A stretch of 64,000 bases of DNA from Eledone cirrhosa (Eukaryota). The stretch is taken from assembly GCA_964016885.1 (NCBI GenBank), contig OZ024740.1, forward strand, positions 152,086,001-152,150,000, in the 5' to 3' direction. The notes under the pieces were generated by a model that was not told the DNA's origin, made no database searches, and saw only the letters and a list, made by a program, of their open reading frames with translations. This document shows positions 9,780-20,656 of this stretch, piece after piece (the stretch's first letter is position 1; each line of letters begins with the position of its first letter). The position numbers were made by a program, and so were the translations under genes.

Positions 9780-10509
<730 letters not shown>

Positions 10510-11309
10510 TAGAGCCGTGACCCGTTGGGTCATGTTCACTTAAAAATATTTTTTAAATATTTAAAATATACACAAAATGTATATAATGTAAAATGACATT
10601 GGAAAGCCAATATATGTATATACATGTATGTGTGTGTGTATATGTACGTGTATATATATATATATGTTTGCGTGTGTGGGTGTCTGTGGCCTATATACAC
10701 TGGTTACATATACATCCTGTCCTAACACAAGTTATAAGATACATATAACTTAATATTCAGTCACCAAATTCAAGCTAGATACAGAAATGATGTATTCAAT
10801 TCTTTGAAGTCACCAGTCATAATTTCATTCAACAACACCACCAGCTCTCTCCCTCTCTCTCTCTCTCTCTCACAACCACTATCTGCGTTTGTATTCACAT
10901 TTCAATGGTACCTTACTTTCAAAGAATTTTCCCATTATGCGCTGATTTGGTTATTTATAAGGGTACCCGAAAAAACCCGCGTATCTCGGGATCCCGTGGT
11001 CCGATTTACGCGAAACTTGTCTTTTCACTGTATTATTCACAAGTATTTTCACAAAGAAAATATCAAATCATTTTTCACTAATAGCTATCCAATAACTCCA
11101 CTTCAAAATTCTTTTTTCTATATCTCTATGGATGCTTGACTGTTTGTTCTGAAAGATTTTTCTTCTTAAAAAGTTGCAATGTTAATGAAAATCTGGTTTT
11201 ATTTACAAAAAGTTGAAAGAAATTATTCTTACTTGTCTTAGTTTTTCCTTTTCCTTTCATTTTCTGACGTCGGAATCAACATTTTCTCATATTTACGCTG
11301 TTACAGTTT

Positions 11310-14300
11310 GTTCAAAAGAATGCTTTTGATGACAACATTCTTAGTTGACTGGGTATCCTTCAGAAACACTCTGACATTTTCTTTTCGTTTTCCGCGGCTA
11401 AGGGCTACAGTTGACCATGTTGGAATACAGGTCGTTCCAGATAAACCAAGACGTTTTCCATAGTTTGTCCTTGTGCTTTATGAATAGTCATACCGAAGCA
11501 CGATTGAACTGGGAATTGGCTTCGCTGCCAAGGGATATCATCACCTTCGGATAGATTAATTCTTTTCTAGGTATCATAACGATCTCATTTCTGAAAGCAA
11601 CAGTGTTGATTCTTGCTACTATGAGATTGTCGTGCAGTTCTTCCACAATCATGCGCGTTCCATTACAAAGCCTTGGAGGATTCAAGTTTCTCATAAGAAT
11701 TATTGGCGATCCTTTTTTCAATTCCAGGATATGTGGTGGCAGTCCTGATAGTTCAACCGAATCAAAGAATTCAGTCGGGAAATGAGTGGCATTGGCATCA
11801 CTCACAGAATTATAGGATCGGTACTCTTTTATGGTTCCAGGGAAGAGTCTGATACAGGTGGAATTGATGCTTCTCATCATTTCATTGAGAGGTACTAAGA
11901 TGCAATTGTTCGAAAACACTTCAGCTGGATTGTCGAATGAGGGGTAGATGAAATCAATACATTCTTCCATAGTTGTTGCTTGGAGAACCATTTCGTTTGG
12001 CAAAATAATTTCCTCATTTTCAGTTTTTTTTATCTTATCTTCTCCAATATCCAATAGGAACTGTGAATAGTCTCCTGCTCCCCCACCCAATCGCATGTTT
12101 GTCTTCAACTGAAATCTTTTGAAGCTTCGCCATAAGTAGGATTTTTTAATGCAGGCGTTTTCCACGTCCGCTTCATTTCCCCTTTTCACTACCGGAAGAA
12201 GCTGACGGAAATCACCACAGCAAATTGTCAAAATTCCACCGAATGCCTCATTGTTGTCGCATATGTCACGCAGAGTGAGGTCAACAGCTTCGAAGCTTTC
12301 CTTCCGAATCATAGGACACTCATCCCAAACAATCAGCCTTGTATGCTGGAAGAGGTTTGCTGTCTTTGAGTTTTTATCAATGTTGCACAGACCATTTTCT
12401 TTCACTACTATCGGTATTTTGAACCTAGAATGCGATGTTCTTCCACCAGGCATCAGTGTGGCGGCAATGCCAGATGACGCAACATCAATATCCACGTCAC
12501 CGTCTCCCCTGACTTTTGAAAGAATTAAGTTAATCAGGAATGTCTTTCCTGTTCCACCTGGAACGTCAATGAAAATCAATGCAGATGTGTTCGTCTTTAA
12601 ACTGTTACAAACGAAGTCATACACGTGTTTTTGTTCACTATTCAATAGAGGCTCCGTCTCTTCTACAAATCGTCGCTGCTCTTCTCTCCTGTATTGCAAT
12701 TCATGCAATAACTCCAAATTGCCAATATCCTGATTAGCAACAATATTATTTGGCCTTGGCAAGCTAAAGTCACTAAGACTTTTGCCCAGGTCGTTAAGTT
12801 TGTCTTCAAAATACAGAAGACATTGATCATAATGTCTCTCGCTAATCAAAAGGTTAGAGTTTCTGGTAGCCCTTTTTTCTATTTGAAGGTAATCTTCACA
12901 CAGCGAATGCTTAAATCGAACCCATAAAGCACTGGAATTGTCAATTTCCGTATTTGTGAGGAGCACGATGAATAGATCTCTCATGGCTTTGGGAAGCCTT
13001 GTTCGCTCAGCATCTTCCAGAGTCTGCTGCCAATGATCATCCGATTGAAGCAAACCTTTCTCTCTGCAGACGTCTTTGAATAATGGCAGGAGTTCTCCAT
13101 CACACATTTTCAAAGAGTTGAAGGATACTGGCCCTTTGACGTGATGCAGAAGGAGTCTTAAATAATACAGGTCACCACTTCGTGGAGAAACAGTGTATAC
13201 TCGTCCCAAAACGTTCGCCTCAAAGATCCTTGGATACTGCTCAACTGTTTTCTCCACCTTTCTCCTTTCCCATCTCTTATTACTCCAAGTGTAAAACTTT
13301 GGGACATCGGCATAATACAATGTTTTTGCAAACGGATCGCGATCGCAAAGATCCATGAATTCAGTCAGAGTCGTCTTAGCCATGTTATTGTTTACTTTAA
13401 CAGCAGCATTGACCCGAAAGAAGATTTGCTTTTCCTCAGGTAGATGAACTTGAAGGCGAACTACGGCCGGTTCTCTCTCATGAATTGGAAATCCAAGTAC
13501 CAAGGCAACAGCTTCTGAAGGACCGATATATCTTCCTGTTAAATACTATATTATCTCATCTTCCCTGTTCACTGCCCTTCATGGTATATTTGTCTGATCA
13601 CTGCCCTTCATGGTATATTTGATAACGTATTTGATTGATTTCACAGAAGAGCACATCTCTACGTTTAGGTGGCAGTTGAACAGTTTTAATAGTTTCATAT
13701 TGTAGGGAACCACCCATTCCGAAGTTATATTTCGGCTTCCCCTTCCTTCTTGGTGCCCCTCAAATCTTCCCATTCCTGGAGACCGTCTTCTGTACACAGG
13801 ATAAGAGTCCTCTCCACACAATGTATATTCATTGAAAGGCTTAGGGTACCGCTTACTGCACGTTCCATCTTTCCAACACGGCGAATTGTTAGAGCAATTC
13901 GGACCGTGGATCATGTGCTTCAGCACCAATTCATGAACCTCTGGATCTTTGTTTGGATCTGGTATTTCGGCTTGAACAAATTTATCATATTCCTGCGATC
14001 TGGGCTTGGAGGCTTCATTGATCCATAGCAAACAGTGCACATGAGGAAGACCTCGCTTTTGATATTCGACTGTCAGCACGTAAGCCATGCACTTGCCAAA
14101 TAGGCCATCTTATCCTGTAAGATACTTTCTTAACAGTTTCCGCTTCAGGTCAAATACTCTGGCAATTAAATCTGGCCTGTCATGTGACTTCTGATTCAGG
14201 AATAGGTTTTGCCGGATTTCAGGCCAGTTTGGATTGCATGTCATTGTGATGAAGAACGAAGGATTGCCGTACTTCCGTATGTACATCATGGCATCCTGGC

Positions 14301-16770
14301 ATCACTCCATCATATATCTCGGTCCACCGACAAATGTGGAAGAGAGTATGATTCGCCTGCCAATATTGCGAAAATCGTCATCATCATTCAATGCGTCAGT
14401 AAGGCCCTTGTATGTTGTAGATTGCAATGATGTTTGATTCATTCGGATGTATTGCAGTCTATCTCCTTCAATCTTCGCAGCCATGTCAACCAAATATTGC
14501 TGAAATAAACGACCGCTTCTGAGAAGTTGGTTGAATTCATTCTCATGGTTCATTATTCGATAGGCATAGTAGCGCATTGGCGTCAACTTCTTGTTGTTGC
14601 TCATTAACAGCTGATGATGTCATCCGTCATCGCCAAAAGGAAAGAATAGAACATACTGCGAACTGTCATAGGACCGATGGGACTCTGAGATTATTTGCAA
14701 TTGTCCGCCTTTTTCTTTCAACACAATGTGCCGTGCTTTTGCTTGAAGTTCGGTGCTGTTTTGTATAATAACGGCAACTTCGTTTGCAGTTTGTGCATTG
14801 AATATTCTCTCATGTTCCATTGCTGGTCTCCTATCAGGATCAATAATAATCGAAGCTTCGAGAATAGTTTTAATTTGTTCTTTTGCCATTCGAAATGAAG
14901 CAACGTAAGGGTTATATTGTCTGAGTATTATTTCCAATAATTCAACTATGTCGCGCTGAATGCCATCGTTATGGAGTATCCTGATCCTCAAATCATCAGT
15001 ATCCTGAGGATCCAAGAAGTAAATTTGAAGAAATTGGGGTTGTTCGTTGCGATTGGGGGTTAAGGAACCGATGTAATGGTGAATTTGACCATGAATAACG
15101 ATAGAAGGATTCTATCCACTCCTTGAGGAACGAACTTCTTCGGCCCCAAAAGATGTCATTTGGAACAGGCAGTTGTATTGTCTGAGGTTCTTCCTGAACT
15201 CGTTTGCCATAGGTTGATCAGTACTAAATAAACTGTGAAGGTCCTGGGGTAAAGGCTGCAGATTCCCCAACCTGACTTTTCCATTCATACAGCAAAAGTT
15301 AGCAGTTTCACCATGAAAAAGCATTGCATGACAACAGACACAGATCTTATTCATCTGTCCAACATCAGCAGAGAGGTCACGTCGTTGAACTGTCCTTGCT
15401 CTATCCCTAATGGTTTGTTGGCAAAGACGTTCAGTTCTCCGAGCGTCCGATTCATGATCTCTCTTGCTTCTGTCTCTTTCCTTCTGTTCCGCCAGACGCG
15501 CAGCTCTCCGACCATCCGATTCATGATATCTCCTGCTTCTGTCTCTTTCCTTCTGTTCCGCCAGACGCGCAGCTCTCCGACCATCCGATTCATGATCTCT
15601 CCTGCTTCTGTCTCTTTCCTTCTGTTCCGCCAGACGCTCAGCTCTCCGACCATCCGATTCATGATCTCTCCTGCTTCTGTCTCTTTCCTTCTGTTCCGCC
15701 AGACGCGCAGCTCTCCGACCATCCGATTCATGATATCTCCTGCTTCTGTCTCTTTCCTTCTGTTCCGCCAGACGCGCAGCTCTCCGACCATCCGATTCAT
15801 GATCTCTCTTGCTTCTGTCTCTTTCCTTCTGTTCCGCCAGACGCTCAGCTCTCCGACCATCCGATTCATGATCTCTCCTGCTTCTGTCTCTTTCCTTCTG
15901 TTCCGCCAGACGCGCAGCTCTCCGACCATCCGATTCATGATCTCTCCTGCTTCTGTCTCTTTCCTTCTGTTCCGCCAGACGCGCAGCTCTCTGACCATCC
16001 GATTCATGATCTCTCCTGCTTCTGTCTCTTTCCTTCTGTTCCGCCAGACGCGCAGCTCTCCGACCATCCGATTCATGATCTCTCCTTCTTCTATCTCTTT
16101 CCTTCTGTTCCGCCAGACGCGCAGCTTTCCGACCATCCGATTCATGATCTCTCCTGCTTCTGTCTCTTTCCTTCTGTTCCGCCAGACGCGCAGCTCTCTG
16201 ACCATCCGATTCATGATCTCTCCTGCTTCTGTCTCTTTCCTTCTGTTCCGCCAGACGCGCAGCTCTCTGACCATCCGATTCATGATCTCTCCTGCTTCTG
16301 TCTCTTTCCTTCTGTTCCGCCAGACGCGCAGCTCTCTGACCATCCGATTCATGATCTCTCCTGCTTCTGTCTCTTTCCTTCTGTTCCGCCAGACGCTCAG
16401 CTCTCTGACCATCCGATTCATGATCTCTCCTGCTTCTGTCTCTTTCCTTCTGTTCCGCCAGACGCGCAGCTCTCTGACCATCCGATTCATGATCTCTCCT
16501 GCTTCTGTCTCTTTCCTTCTGTTCCGCCAGACGCTCAGCTCTCCGACCACCCGATTCATGATCTCTCCTGCTTCTGTCTCTTTCCCTCTGTTCCGCCAGA
16601 TGTGCAGCCGTTGCTTTATCAGTCTCATCGATCCTTCTATTCGCATGCCTGTCCCGATCTTGTTGGCGTTGACCACTATCTTGCTCACCTTCTTCGGCTC
16701 TCCTTAGCCGTGCTTTCTTTCTACTATCGATAGACCAACCAGATGTTTTCTTTCTTCCTTGTCGAGGCAT
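11310..16770 (-). pseudogene. Helitron RepHel transposase: STPR-like repeats, Cys cluster, HUH Rep (Y2), Pif1-family SF1B helicase
   Basis: CVCCHA..CCMNGK; FITMTCNPNW; EYQKRGLPHVHCLLW; KYVIKYTMKG; PGGTGKTF, WDECPM, GDFRQLLPV, LMRNLNPPRLCNGTR. In-frame stops at about 15112, 14620 and 14302, plus frameshifts including a 29-bp duplication at about 13570-13620. Confidence 0.93.
15400..16626 (-). repeat. 69-bp coding minisatellite: 16 near-identical plus 2 degenerate units encoding ESDG(R/Q)RA(A/E)RLAEQKERDRSRRDH
   Basis: Period counted directly as 69 nt / 23 aa. Confidence 0.97.
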
Positions 16771-17770
16771 TATTTAAGAATAGAAAATCGTATTCACCTT
16801 AGAAAAAATTCCTATTACCTCAACAAATATTTTTTTAAAATCATCATTTAGAAATATTTCTAAATAATGAAAATATTGTCTGTTTAAACAACTCGTATTT
16901 TTCAAATCATATTCACTTAAAAAATACTTATTAATAATTAAAATATTCTGTTTAAAGTAAGCTGAAATATATATACTCAGTGTACAAATAATTTGTATTT
17001 TTTAAGTCATTTTCACTTAAGAATATTTTTTAAATATGCCAAGAAATATTTTTTTCCATCGTATTCACTTGAAAATAATTTTTTTTAAATGAAGATATTG
17101 TCTATGTAAATAAAGCTATTTGTGAAATCAAATTCACTTTTAAATATTTCTAAATAATTGAAATATTCTTTTTAACAAAAGCAAAAATATTTCTCTATCT
17201 GTAATCCCCCCTCTCTCTCTCTCATCCCCTCTCTCTCTCATCCCCTCACTCTCTCTCTTTCTCTCTCTCACCCCCTCTCTCTCACCCCCTCTCTGTCTCT
17301 CTTACCTACAGAATGGACAACCAAAAAACAAACGGATTATTTCTTTCGATATTCATTATAAAATAAGATAAATTGAATTTAAATGAATTCCTTGCTATTT
17401 TTGGAAAATTGAAAATATTGTCCATGTGCGATTTACGCTAAACTTGTTTTATTCAGAGTATTTTCTCATTATGCAATGTTTTGGCTATTTACGAAGTTTT
17501 GCGGGTTATGTTAATTTCGAGGTATTTTCCCAGTATGCACCGTTGTGGCTATTTACGAAGGTACCCCCAAAACCCGCGAATCTCGGGAACCCGGGGTCAG
17601 ATTTTCGCGAAACTTGTTTTATTCAATTTGTATTCCCATTTGAGAGGCAACTTGCTTTCAAAGTATTTACCCATTATGCGCCCTTTTGCCTGTATTACAT
17701 AACAGACAAGCAAGCAAGCACGCAAGATCAGAGTTTTAGTAGTATATAGATAGATATATATATATATATA

Positions 17771-18182: not shown

Positions 18183-19333
18183 TGAGAGTTGGGGAAGAAC
18201 GAGGTTCCATGTTCAGGAAAAGGTGTGTGTGTGGGGTGGGGTGGTAGTATTGTTAGTTGTGGGGTGGGCGGTGAAAAGGAGAAGTGTGTTAGTGGTGTTA
18301 GGGGGGGGGGATATGTGTGTGGGGGGAGGACCAGGGCGGTCGAAGGCTAAAGGAATAGGGGTGGGGAGTTCAGGCAGGGAAGAGTGTGGGTCTGTAGGGT
18401 GAAGATGGTGCGTTGTTCGACCCTGAGGAGGGTGGCAGGTGTTCCGTGGCATTGGAGTAGGCCACAGACTGTGAGGTGGTGCGCGGAATGTCCAGGGGAG
18501 CCAAAGTGGCGGGCGATGGGGGACTCCCACCGAGACGAATATCCCGGAGGTGTTCGGTAAAACGGACCGCCAGGCGACGGCCAGTCTGTCCGGTGTAGGT
18601 TGCGCTACACTCCGTGCAGCGAAGTCCATAGACTAGGTTGGAGGAGGTGCAGCGGAAGGCGTGCCGGACAGAGAGAGAGTGGCCGTTGGAACCCTGGAAG
18701 GTGGTGGTGTTGGTGATGTAGGGGACAGGTGTTGCTACGAGGCCTGGAACAGGGAAGGGAACCGGGGGGTAGGTAGCTACGGACGAGGAGGGTGCGGAGA
18801 TTGCGTGCGCGTTTGAAGGAGGAGAGTGGTGGGGCTGGGAAGATATGGGAGGTGGAGAGGTCGGACTGGATGCGTCGGAAGAGGCGGAGGATGGTGCGGT
18901 GGAGGGGTAGGGTGGAGGGGTGGTAGGTGATGGGGAAGGGGAGGCGGTGGGTGGGTGTGCGGTGGCGTGGGGTGAGGGTGGTGGAGCGGTGGACAGCACG
19001 GGCGCGAGTGAAGGCGGTGTGGACGGCGGGGGAGACCTCTGCGGATGAAATGGCTGACTAGGGAAAGGGCCTGGGACTCAAAGTCAGCATCTCGGCTACA
19101 GAGGCGGCGGATCCTGAGGAGTTGGGAGTAGGGAATAGAGTGTTTAGTGTGTGTGTGTAGGTTGGGAGGAGGTGAAGTCGAAGTAGGAGTGGGAGTCGGT
19201 GGATTTGAAGAAGGCGGAGGTGGCGAGGGTGTGGTGGGAGTGGTCGAAGGCGACGGAGATGTCTAAGAAGTGGACGTGGGTGGTGGAGATAGAGGTGGTG
19301 AAGTGGAGGGAAGGGTGGAAGGAGCAGTAGAAG
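17771..19333 (-). mobile_element. Neptune-like PLE, 5'-truncated and frameshifted
   Basis: FHPSLHFT..HFLDISV..STDSHSY (RT thumb), PCSRPRSNTCPYI linker, CTSSNLVYGLRC..YTGQTGRRLAVRFTEHL (GIY-YIG). (TA)n on both sides. Confidence 0.9.
17856..17883 (-). ncRNA. Hammerhead core in the Neptune pLTR (3' part lost in a poly-C run)
   Basis: CUGAAGA-A-GGGC(uuau)GCCC-GAAAC. Confidence 0.6.
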
Positions 19334-20656
19334 GATATATATATATATATATATATGGCGAACGCTGGATAGCTTGTATGCACGCTTGGAATCTTTGAGG
19401 ATCCATGTTTTATATCCCTTTGTTCCTTTTCCTTGTTCTCCGTATGGATACCTACTGTTGTATACCTACTATTGTATGCATAATCTATGTTCCGTTTGTT
19501 CCTATGTTCTCTATATGTGAACCTGAATTTATATCTATATGTTTTTCTGTCCCTATTTTCGCTTCCTACAGCTCACTTCCAAAGTCTAGCAACCCTTTTT
19601 GTCGGACATGGTTGATAACATTAATACCATTGTAGTTACAACTGACTGCTATTGTGGTTAGTTATTTTTCTGCACTGTGATCATTGCTGGCCTTGTGCCT
19701 TAGGGTGGAAGCGAGGATTGTCATGATTATTATGTTAGTACTGTTTTTAATGTAAGAATTTGTTTACAACGACCCGCTCCACCAGGCCTTTTTGTTGCCG
19801 TCGTCGCCGTGGTGGGTTCATTAATGGTGTTTTTGTTGTTGTTAGAGTTGCCGCTGCCTAGGCCTCGGGTAGTGTGTACTCGCTGCCATTAACTGGGTAC
19901 TAATATCATTGATATCACTACTACTGCGACGACCAGTATGAGCGATGGGCGGTGTTGCTGTTGTTGCTGTTATTGTTGTCGTCGCTGTTGTGTTGGGGAT
20001 AGATGCCATCAAGTTTGTGTATCACTCTACCTCAGAGTTCCGTTTATTCCTCTGGCTGTTGTTATCGTTGTTGTTGTCAGCGGGGTGGTATTGTCCCTAC
20101 GACTGCTGCGTCCAGTGTAGGCGACGTTACTCGGTATTTGCTGTTGTTGTCATTGTTGTTGTTGTTGCTGTTGATGTTGTAGCTGTTGTCTTGAATGTGG
20201 CCGTCAACAAAATATATATACCCCTCCCTCCCTCAGTGTTCCATTTATTGCTTCCTCTCTCAACTGGGCTCTGGCTGCGCATAGGTTTTCATTTGATACA
20301 GATCAACACAGCATACTTGAGAGGTTACCTCTCTGCTGATTTACGACCTCAATTCCATGGGGGATGCGTGAATCCTGATTTCACTAATTGACAAGTTGAT
20401 AGCACCTCACTCCAGTAAACAGGACGGCTTGGAGACCCTTTCAGGTACTCATATGTCTGCTGGGCGCACGAGCAGAAGGACGTGTGTTTTTTTTTTCCTG
20501 CCGCCAGCATATCACTAAATCAGATTTCATCTGAGGACATCGCTCTCATAACAACAACAAATGCATGAAGCACATCTTGATTGCATGGGAGGACCGTTGA
20601 AATAATTATAATGAATAAACGTTTTGTGTAACATCAGCATCTTTATTTATGTTATT

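Follow-up and report, generated by a model that had tools for sequence, protein, structure and literature searches.

STPR domains bind AT-rich double-stranded DNA in its major groove. The STPR domain of Bombyx FMBP-1 (BmSTPR) is described, in the relevant passages of PMC4856987, as contacting DNA phosphates through R6, R9, L10, Y16 and R20 and thymine methyl groups through M13, S14, Y16, A17 and L21; the base-contacting positions are 13, 14, 16, 17 and 21, and recognition is mostly by shape. According to the same passages, the best ligands are (atac)n, (atat)n and (tata)n, with one helix per 4 bp, and four units bind with higher affinity than three. That STPRs are associated with Helitrons has already been published: passages of the HELIANO report list them among 20 domains that are stable cargo of Helitrons, nearly always of the HLE1 type, and among 17 domains found in ORFs separate from the transposase (PMC11417382). 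Within the open-access literature, HELIANO was the only report found on STPRs and Helitrons together, and no paper on variation in STPR repeat number in Helitrons was found there. The Helraiser transposase has a basic N-terminus, a zinc-finger-like motif, Rep and PIF1, and its DNA binding is reported in part of PMC4778049 to need the N-terminal 489 residues. Lastly, passages of PMC12001565 describe the 166-bp arrays of Heli2Xen and those of DINE/HINE, which lie at element ends or fill non-autonomous copies.

We analysed a stretch of 64,000 nucleotides (hereafter the window) from Eledone cirrhosa, whose genome is 3.0 Gb in size and rich in microsatellites. An initial annotation had proposed that the window contains a Helitron transposase with about 18 tandem STPR-like repeats. 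Canonical (HLE1) Helitrons start with 5'-TC, end with CTRR-3', and insert between A and T without target duplication. The element in the window and its parts are as follows.

10509..17750, minus strand: full-length copy of an HLE1 (canonical) Helitron, 7,242 bp, between host A and T (5' TC, 3' CTAG, colinear sisters)
17751..17770, no strand: TA-rich tract at the 5' flank (sequence, sister comparison)
17737..17750, minus strand: 5' terminus starting TC (identical start in many sister copies)
16771..17750, minus strand: 5' non-coding region, 980 bp (sister comparison)
15112..15114, minus strand: first premature stop, closing an ORF of 552 aa (same-codon stop in 3 of 59 copies)
13582..14619, minus strand: Helitron_like_N and Rep, broken by stops at 14304 and 14112 (Pfam, motifs)
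14035-14067, minus strand: HUH motif
13615-13632, minus strand: tyrosine motif
11303..13548, minus strand: PIF1 helicase region with a stop at 13548 and frameshifts near 11565 and 11410 (Pfam, motifs)
12541-12555, minus strand: Walker A
12319-12330, minus strand: Walker B
10509..10532, minus strand: 3' hairpin (10518-10532) and terminal CTAG (10509-10512) (sequence; conserved in sisters)
10472..10508, no strand: (TA)n tract at the 3' flank (TRF)

The junctions with the host read A|TC at 17751/17750 and CTAG|T at 10509/10508, the 3' hairpin has a 6-bp stem and a 3-nt loop, and dispersed members of the family share these ends but have differing flanks. Both PF14214 and PF05970 matched, and the HUH and tyrosine motifs are followed by the PIF1 helicase. 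This copy is catalytically dead: RepHel lies in the frame of the array, but behind six stops (15114, 14622, 14304, 14112, 13548, and one more where there is a small insertion near 13581), and two frameshifts interrupt it as well. The copy is 1.5-1.6% divergent from the family majority, with a dN/dS of 0.80 in the body, and it has lost about 530 bp of its 5' non-coding region, which measures 980 bp here whereas five siblings have 1,505-1,597 bp. A 29-bp tandem duplication (13565-13621) in the linker between Rep and helicase produces a net in-frame insertion of 9 bp that carries a stop. In many sisters as well as in this copy, 115 bp of the 5' non-coding region (17511..17625, minus strand) are a direct repeat, at about 80% identity, of 10913-11027 in the 3' non-coding region. 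Next to the element, at 18213-19572 (minus strand), a frameshifted fragment weakly matches GIY-YIG (E 0.034) and may resemble the reverse transcriptase end and endonuclease of a Penelope-like retroelement; a phage tblastn search with this GIY-YIG-like frame gave no match.

The array occupies the beginning of the coding region.

16627..16770, minus strand: ATG, basic leader and degenerate pre-unit (ORF, unit register)
16627-16695, minus strand: the pre-unit, a weaker 19th unit upstream of the array (unit register)
15385..16626, minus strand: STPR-coding minisatellite, 18 x 69 bp as assembled (TRF, Pfam, unit register, structural model)
16558-16626, minus strand: degenerate first unit (unit register)
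15454-16557, minus strand: 16 core units (unit register)
15385-15453, minus strand: degenerate last unit (unit register)
15280..15342, minus strand: CxxC...CC Cys cluster, the zinc-finger-like motif of Helitron transposases (motif, relatives, alignment to Helraiser 7lcc)

TRF detected 17.2 copies of a 69-bp period with 96% matches at 15425-16608, and together with the unit register this gives 18 units, 16 of them core units with a mean pairwise difference of 2.7%. The count of about 18 repeats of 23 residues, 16 of them nearly identical, was therefore correct, as was the end of the array at 16626, whereas its start is at 15385 and not at 15400. The 552-aa ORF extends from the ATG at 16770, which is followed by a leader with a putative NLS, to the stop at 15112-15114; it includes 414 residues of repeats and the Cys cluster, the Cys residues of which are nearly invariant across 82 aligned relatives. 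The core units are of nine distinct types arranged in a non-trivial order, and the junctions of the array with both flanks are clean and in register. Variants in this copy (7 nonsynonymous to 1 synonymous) affect positions 3 (D/G), 5 (R/Q), 6 (R/K), 8 (A/E), 19 (S/R), 20 (R/K) and 22 (D/Y), and thus include the R/Q, A/E, D/Y and R/K alternatives noted initially at positions 5, 8, 22 and 20.

The identity of the repeats as STPRs was upheld by the HMMER comparison that had been suggested. Pfam STPRs (PF21107) matched the ORF in seven stretches at E 1.4e-26 and 93.1 bits, compared with a cut-off of 27 bits. In the other open frames of the array, EBNA2_N (71 bits) and DUF547 (32 bits) also appeared, with no passing stretch, and were dismissed as repeat artefacts. 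Because of such inflated scores we tested four units alone, which scored 25.8 bits, just below the 27-bit cut-off, indicating that repetition inflates the score of the whole array. A strict 23-residue period with E1, T/S2 and R9, the definition of the STPR period given in part of PMC4856987, is nonetheless seen in all 16 core units. The unit keeps E1, S2, R6, R9, L10 and R20 of BmSTPR, including all four residues (E1, R6, R9 and L10) that had been named as conserved, and has Q13, K14, R16, D17 and R21 in place of the hydrophobic M13, S14, Y16, A17 and L21; these thymine-contact residues are a feature of the Bombyx protein and are outside the definition of the STPR family. FMBP-1 of Bombyx was the sole sequence match of the array in the PDB, and a profile of the array region aligned to FMBP-1 (E 1.1e-5) and to Helraiser residues 7-282 (E 1.3e-40), the basic N-terminal stretch included. 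AlphaFold, applied to the last four units together with the Cys region, predicted that each unit forms a helix of 20 residues and a linker of 3 (helices at 3-22, 26-45, 49-68 and 72-94), with a pLDDT of about 98 across the repeats. When the predicted model was compared with 48,161 chains by VIA-align, the best match was 5d23 (rmsd 1.2 Å, 64 of 64 residues), although at 6.6 the Z score is modest and this structure may be one that AlphaFold had learned. The 50 VIA-align matches listed, all of them filled by the repeat region, did not include 7lcc. The structure prediction, which the initial annotation had also called for, fits an STPR array.

We then determined the repeat number across the family, as had been proposed. 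Using the flank 3' of the array as query, we obtained 135 candidates, of which only 40 were scored, and a search with the array itself added 29 copies chosen for length; both array anchors were present in 60 of these 69 copies, and the nine without one or both were dropped. The 36 of the 40 flank-picked copies that have both anchors carry 2-24 units, with a median of 4 and with 2-4 units in 25 of the 36. Overall, sister copies range from 2 to about 115 units, the longest array being that of L070 (G000:C3:350,268,706-350,276,533), which spans 7,887 bp and is already out of frame at the first unit. The 18 units in the window are therefore a long allele, but not the longest. Unit number showed no clear link with the divergence of the copy (Spearman 0.20, P 0.16, n=51). 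An ATG at matching spacing is present in 36 of 55 family-A copies, and 38 near-complete copies give a majority body with 1,360 open codons. STPRs and RepHel were therefore joined in one frame in the parent; the fusion of the repeats to the Cys cluster and RepHel had been correctly recognized. At least one stop or frameshift was found in all 38 near-complete copies (21 of 59 copies, with incomplete bodies, were left out of this count). Nine of 35 located 3' ends run head-to-tail into the 5' end of another copy (L033, L034, L037, L041, L047, L051, L060, L064 and L097).

A tree of 63 copies was star-like, and the copies with long arrays formed no clade; the copy in the window has only 0-3 derived non-CpG variants in common with each of nine other long-array copies. 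Its nearest sister, L031, has a different insertion site, 8 units and other private variants. The two have 15 derived changes in common (11 nonsynonymous, 3 synonymous and 1 stop), and the common stop suggests that their parent was already dead, although it may not have been inherited, being located at a CpG and recurring in two other copies. Common ancestry with the 20-unit L074, which has a similar first unit, was rejected, as there were no shared derived variants in the body. If the array had been static, about 17 private mutations would be expected in the 1,104-bp core, but only 6-7 were seen (P ~0.006), and three of these are present in several units each. In the order of the units, block duplications can be recognized in this copy and are striking in L070, where they are of higher order. 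The initial annotation had taken the open and homogeneous array as a sign of recent expansion or homogenisation. The small number of private mutations, the amplification of several of them and the star-like tree support this conclusion, but the stop-free state itself is weak evidence, since four of the six frames are open across the array.

The unit variants across the family match the neutral expectation. Among 55 family-A copies, distinct variants of the core unit comprised 213 nonsynonymous, 69 synonymous and 18 stop changes, the mutational opportunity being 145, 43 and 10, respectively (single-base changes in the 69-bp unit create a stop in 10 of 207 cases). The dN/dS-like ratio was 0.93, and 0.98 for variants found in at least two units; it was calculated from raw counts, which include transition and CpG bias, and without nine variants (7 nonsynonymous, 2 synonymous) that recur in at least eight copies and were taken as ancestral or CpG hotspots. 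One stop variant was repeated in 27 units of L070, four of L073, four of L040 and two of L067, and stop-bearing and out-of-frame arrays have expanded equally well. Among arrays with at least 12 units, five of ten were stop-free, compared with 4.8 expected, and the chance of a stop-free array was 0.69 for this copy.

In programmable arrays of the TALE or PRDM9 kind, variation is concentrated at base-contacting positions under selection. In this copy, positions 13, 14, 16, 17 and 21 do not vary; the variable positions avoid the base-contacting ones, and hence nothing points to a recognition code. The proposal that the long array and its variable positions tune recognition of the element ends or of (TA)n is therefore not supported: the copy is dead, its family's unit variants match the neutral expectation, stop-bearing arrays were amplified, no position that varies in this copy contacts bases in STPRs, and the long arrays form no clade. 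Instead, the 18-unit array very probably arose by neutral minisatellite growth after insertion from a parent with about 3-4 units. That parent would have encoded a transposase in which about 3-4 STPR units were in frame with the Cys cluster, Rep and the PIF1 helicase, and while it was active its short STPR arm probably bound AT-rich double-stranded DNA via the backbone, as the Bombyx STPR does; a targeting role for such a short arm in active elements is plausible. The near-identical 69-bp units would constitute a variable-number tandem repeat in every inserted copy, and slippage or unequal exchange after insertion could then add or remove whole units or blocks, with unit mutations, including stops, being carried along in the amplified blocks. 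The stop-free 552-aa frame would be a by-product, open because the unit is a multiple of three, because there are few routes to a stop, and because few independent mutations were amplified.

Some long arrays are nonetheless located in intact or nearly intact coding regions. Subfamily B (L082, L088, L089, L094 and L095) is about 5% from family A and has few lesions; all five of its copies have 7-12 units, and its dN/dS of about 0.2 relative to family A indicates purifying selection, so that active parents must have differed in unit number. A second Helitron family, 41% identical in protein, has 2-22 units with a median of 4 (15 of 30 loci were measurable; the 15 without the upstream anchor were dropped). 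It includes L130, the only lesion-free full-coverage copy among the 30 loci.

L130:2676-7811 (G000:C2, about 315,526,175-315,531,310), plus strand: unbroken STPR-RepHel transposase of 1,712 aa with 13 units and all catalytic motifs (ORF, motifs)

The array of L130 is common to no sampled copy, and its closest relatives have 2-6 units. Of two snail gene models belonging to one family, one has about 12 units (P0001) and the other about 8. The long arrays in the unbroken frames of L130 and P0001, and the 7-12 units of subfamily B, count against neutral growth as the explanation. Among the proteins retrieved, the Cys cluster was found in 140 of 153 and a clear upstream period in 62 of these 140; this period was 23 in 49 of the 62, mostly with 2-5 units, the query favouring such matches. 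Pfam STPRs gave 2,173 candidates in this genome. We also observed an apparent tandem triplication in the second family, in which three near-identical copies (L177-L179; G000:C25, about 598-627 kb) lie about 10.4 kb apart with one 3' flank, and a further Helitron family (L138; G000:C1, about 231.98 Mb) in which a different, Ala-rich 23-residue unit precedes the Cys cluster.

One could envisage that repeat number is itself an evolvable working feature, with longer arms raising the affinity for (TA)n or similar microsatellites and steering insertion there, and that the copy in the window descended from a long-armed parent. The ligand preference of BmSTPR for (atac)n, (atat)n and (tata)n, its tighter binding with four units than with three (passages of PMC4856987), the 7-12 units of subfamily B and the unbroken frame of L130 with its 13 units are all compatible with this idea, but a clade of long arrays is absent, the nearest relatives of L130 have only 2-6 units, and the thymine-contacting M13, S14, Y16, A17 and L21 are Q, K, R, D and R here. 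The non-tandem 3' flanks of the window's family begin with T(AT)4 more often than expected (11 of 26, against a background of 19% for AT sites within the window; P 0.006), although this background was taken from a single window and TA tracts can lengthen once an element has inserted, and T(AT)4 was found at 12 of 22 3' flanks of the second family when counted by eye; however, Helraiser, according to part of PMC4778049, already favours AT-rich targets. We regard this view of repeat number, with descent of the copy from such a parent, as very improbable. A more general proposal is that the STPR arm steers canonical Helitrons into (TA)n and AT-rich microsatellites, that arm length (about 3-4 units in the family, about 7 in subfamily B and 13 in L130) acts as a fast-evolving targeting dial, and that dead copies seed protein-derived satellites; taken as a whole, this seems unlikely.

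Neutral growth also has to be weighed against the possibility that the 552-aa protein with its STPRs and Cys cluster is made, either as a domesticated DNA-binding protein or as a repressor of Helitron movement. The frame is open from the ATG through the Cys cluster, the model has a pLDDT of about 98 over the repeats, and the 90 codons after the array contain only two amino-acid changes; yet both changes after the array are nonsynonymous, as are both changes in the leader, and in the array the 7:1 excess is in the same direction. The frame from the ATG to the Cys cluster is open in 11 of 60 copies, an independent look-alike with 18 units and 571 aa exists in L075, and this copy has lost about 530 bp of the 5' non-coding region. 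Production of such a protein is thus highly improbable. That the unit number was inflated by an assembly error is harder still to credit: Logan contigs and RAD reads from four runs contained family-type pieces only, and none of these short-read sequences crossed the whole array, but the nine core unit types in their non-trivial order, the clean in-register junctions on both flanks, and private variants that differ between the long arrays of the family all argue against such an error.

By itself, the copy in the window has little significance: it is a dead transposon that carries a long allele of a variable repeat. The family, in contrast, presents a satellite DNA born from a protein-coding repeat of a transposase and graded from 2 to about 115 units within one genome. 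It also bears on how Helitrons choose AT-rich targets: the domain to which their N-terminal STPR arm corresponds binds (ATAT)n and (ATAC)n best, and the unbroken 13-unit transposase of L130 makes the idea of targeting by the STPR arm testable.

Among known systems, the HLE1 Helitrons in passages of the HELIANO report, which give no repeat numbers, resemble the present element in that STPRs (PF21107) are associated with RepHel in a canonical Helitron (PMC11417382); in contrast to the separate ORFs reported there, the family majority, L130 and P0001 each encode STPRs and RepHel in a single frame. Helraiser/Helibat1 (7lcc; described in part of PMC4778049) has the same 5'-TC, hairpin, CTAG-3' and A|T target and likewise a basic N-terminus, a zinc-finger-like motif, Rep and PIF1, but it is reconstructed and active, and the linker to its Cys cluster is preceded by about 100 residues, whereas the copy described here is broken and has 414 repeat residues. 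With the STPR of Bombyx FMBP-1 (5d23, 5d2q and 5d2s) the array shares the 23-residue period, E1, S/T2, the backbone contacts R6, R9, L10 and R20 and, as judged on our side from a predicted model, a helix and a short linker per unit in zig-zag geometry; the hydrophobic thymine pocket of Bombyx (13, 14, 16, 17 and 21) is, however, occupied by polar or charged residues here. The units of host STPR proteins, according to passages of PMC4856987, number 3-7, mostly 4, and are 60-80% identical, in contrast to the 18 units here, which are about 97% identical in DNA. The arrays of Heli2Xen and DINE/HINE are similar in that they too are tandem arrays of varying length carried and spread by a Helitron (passages of PMC12001565), but the array described here, unlike those, derives from the protein-coding repeat of the transposase.
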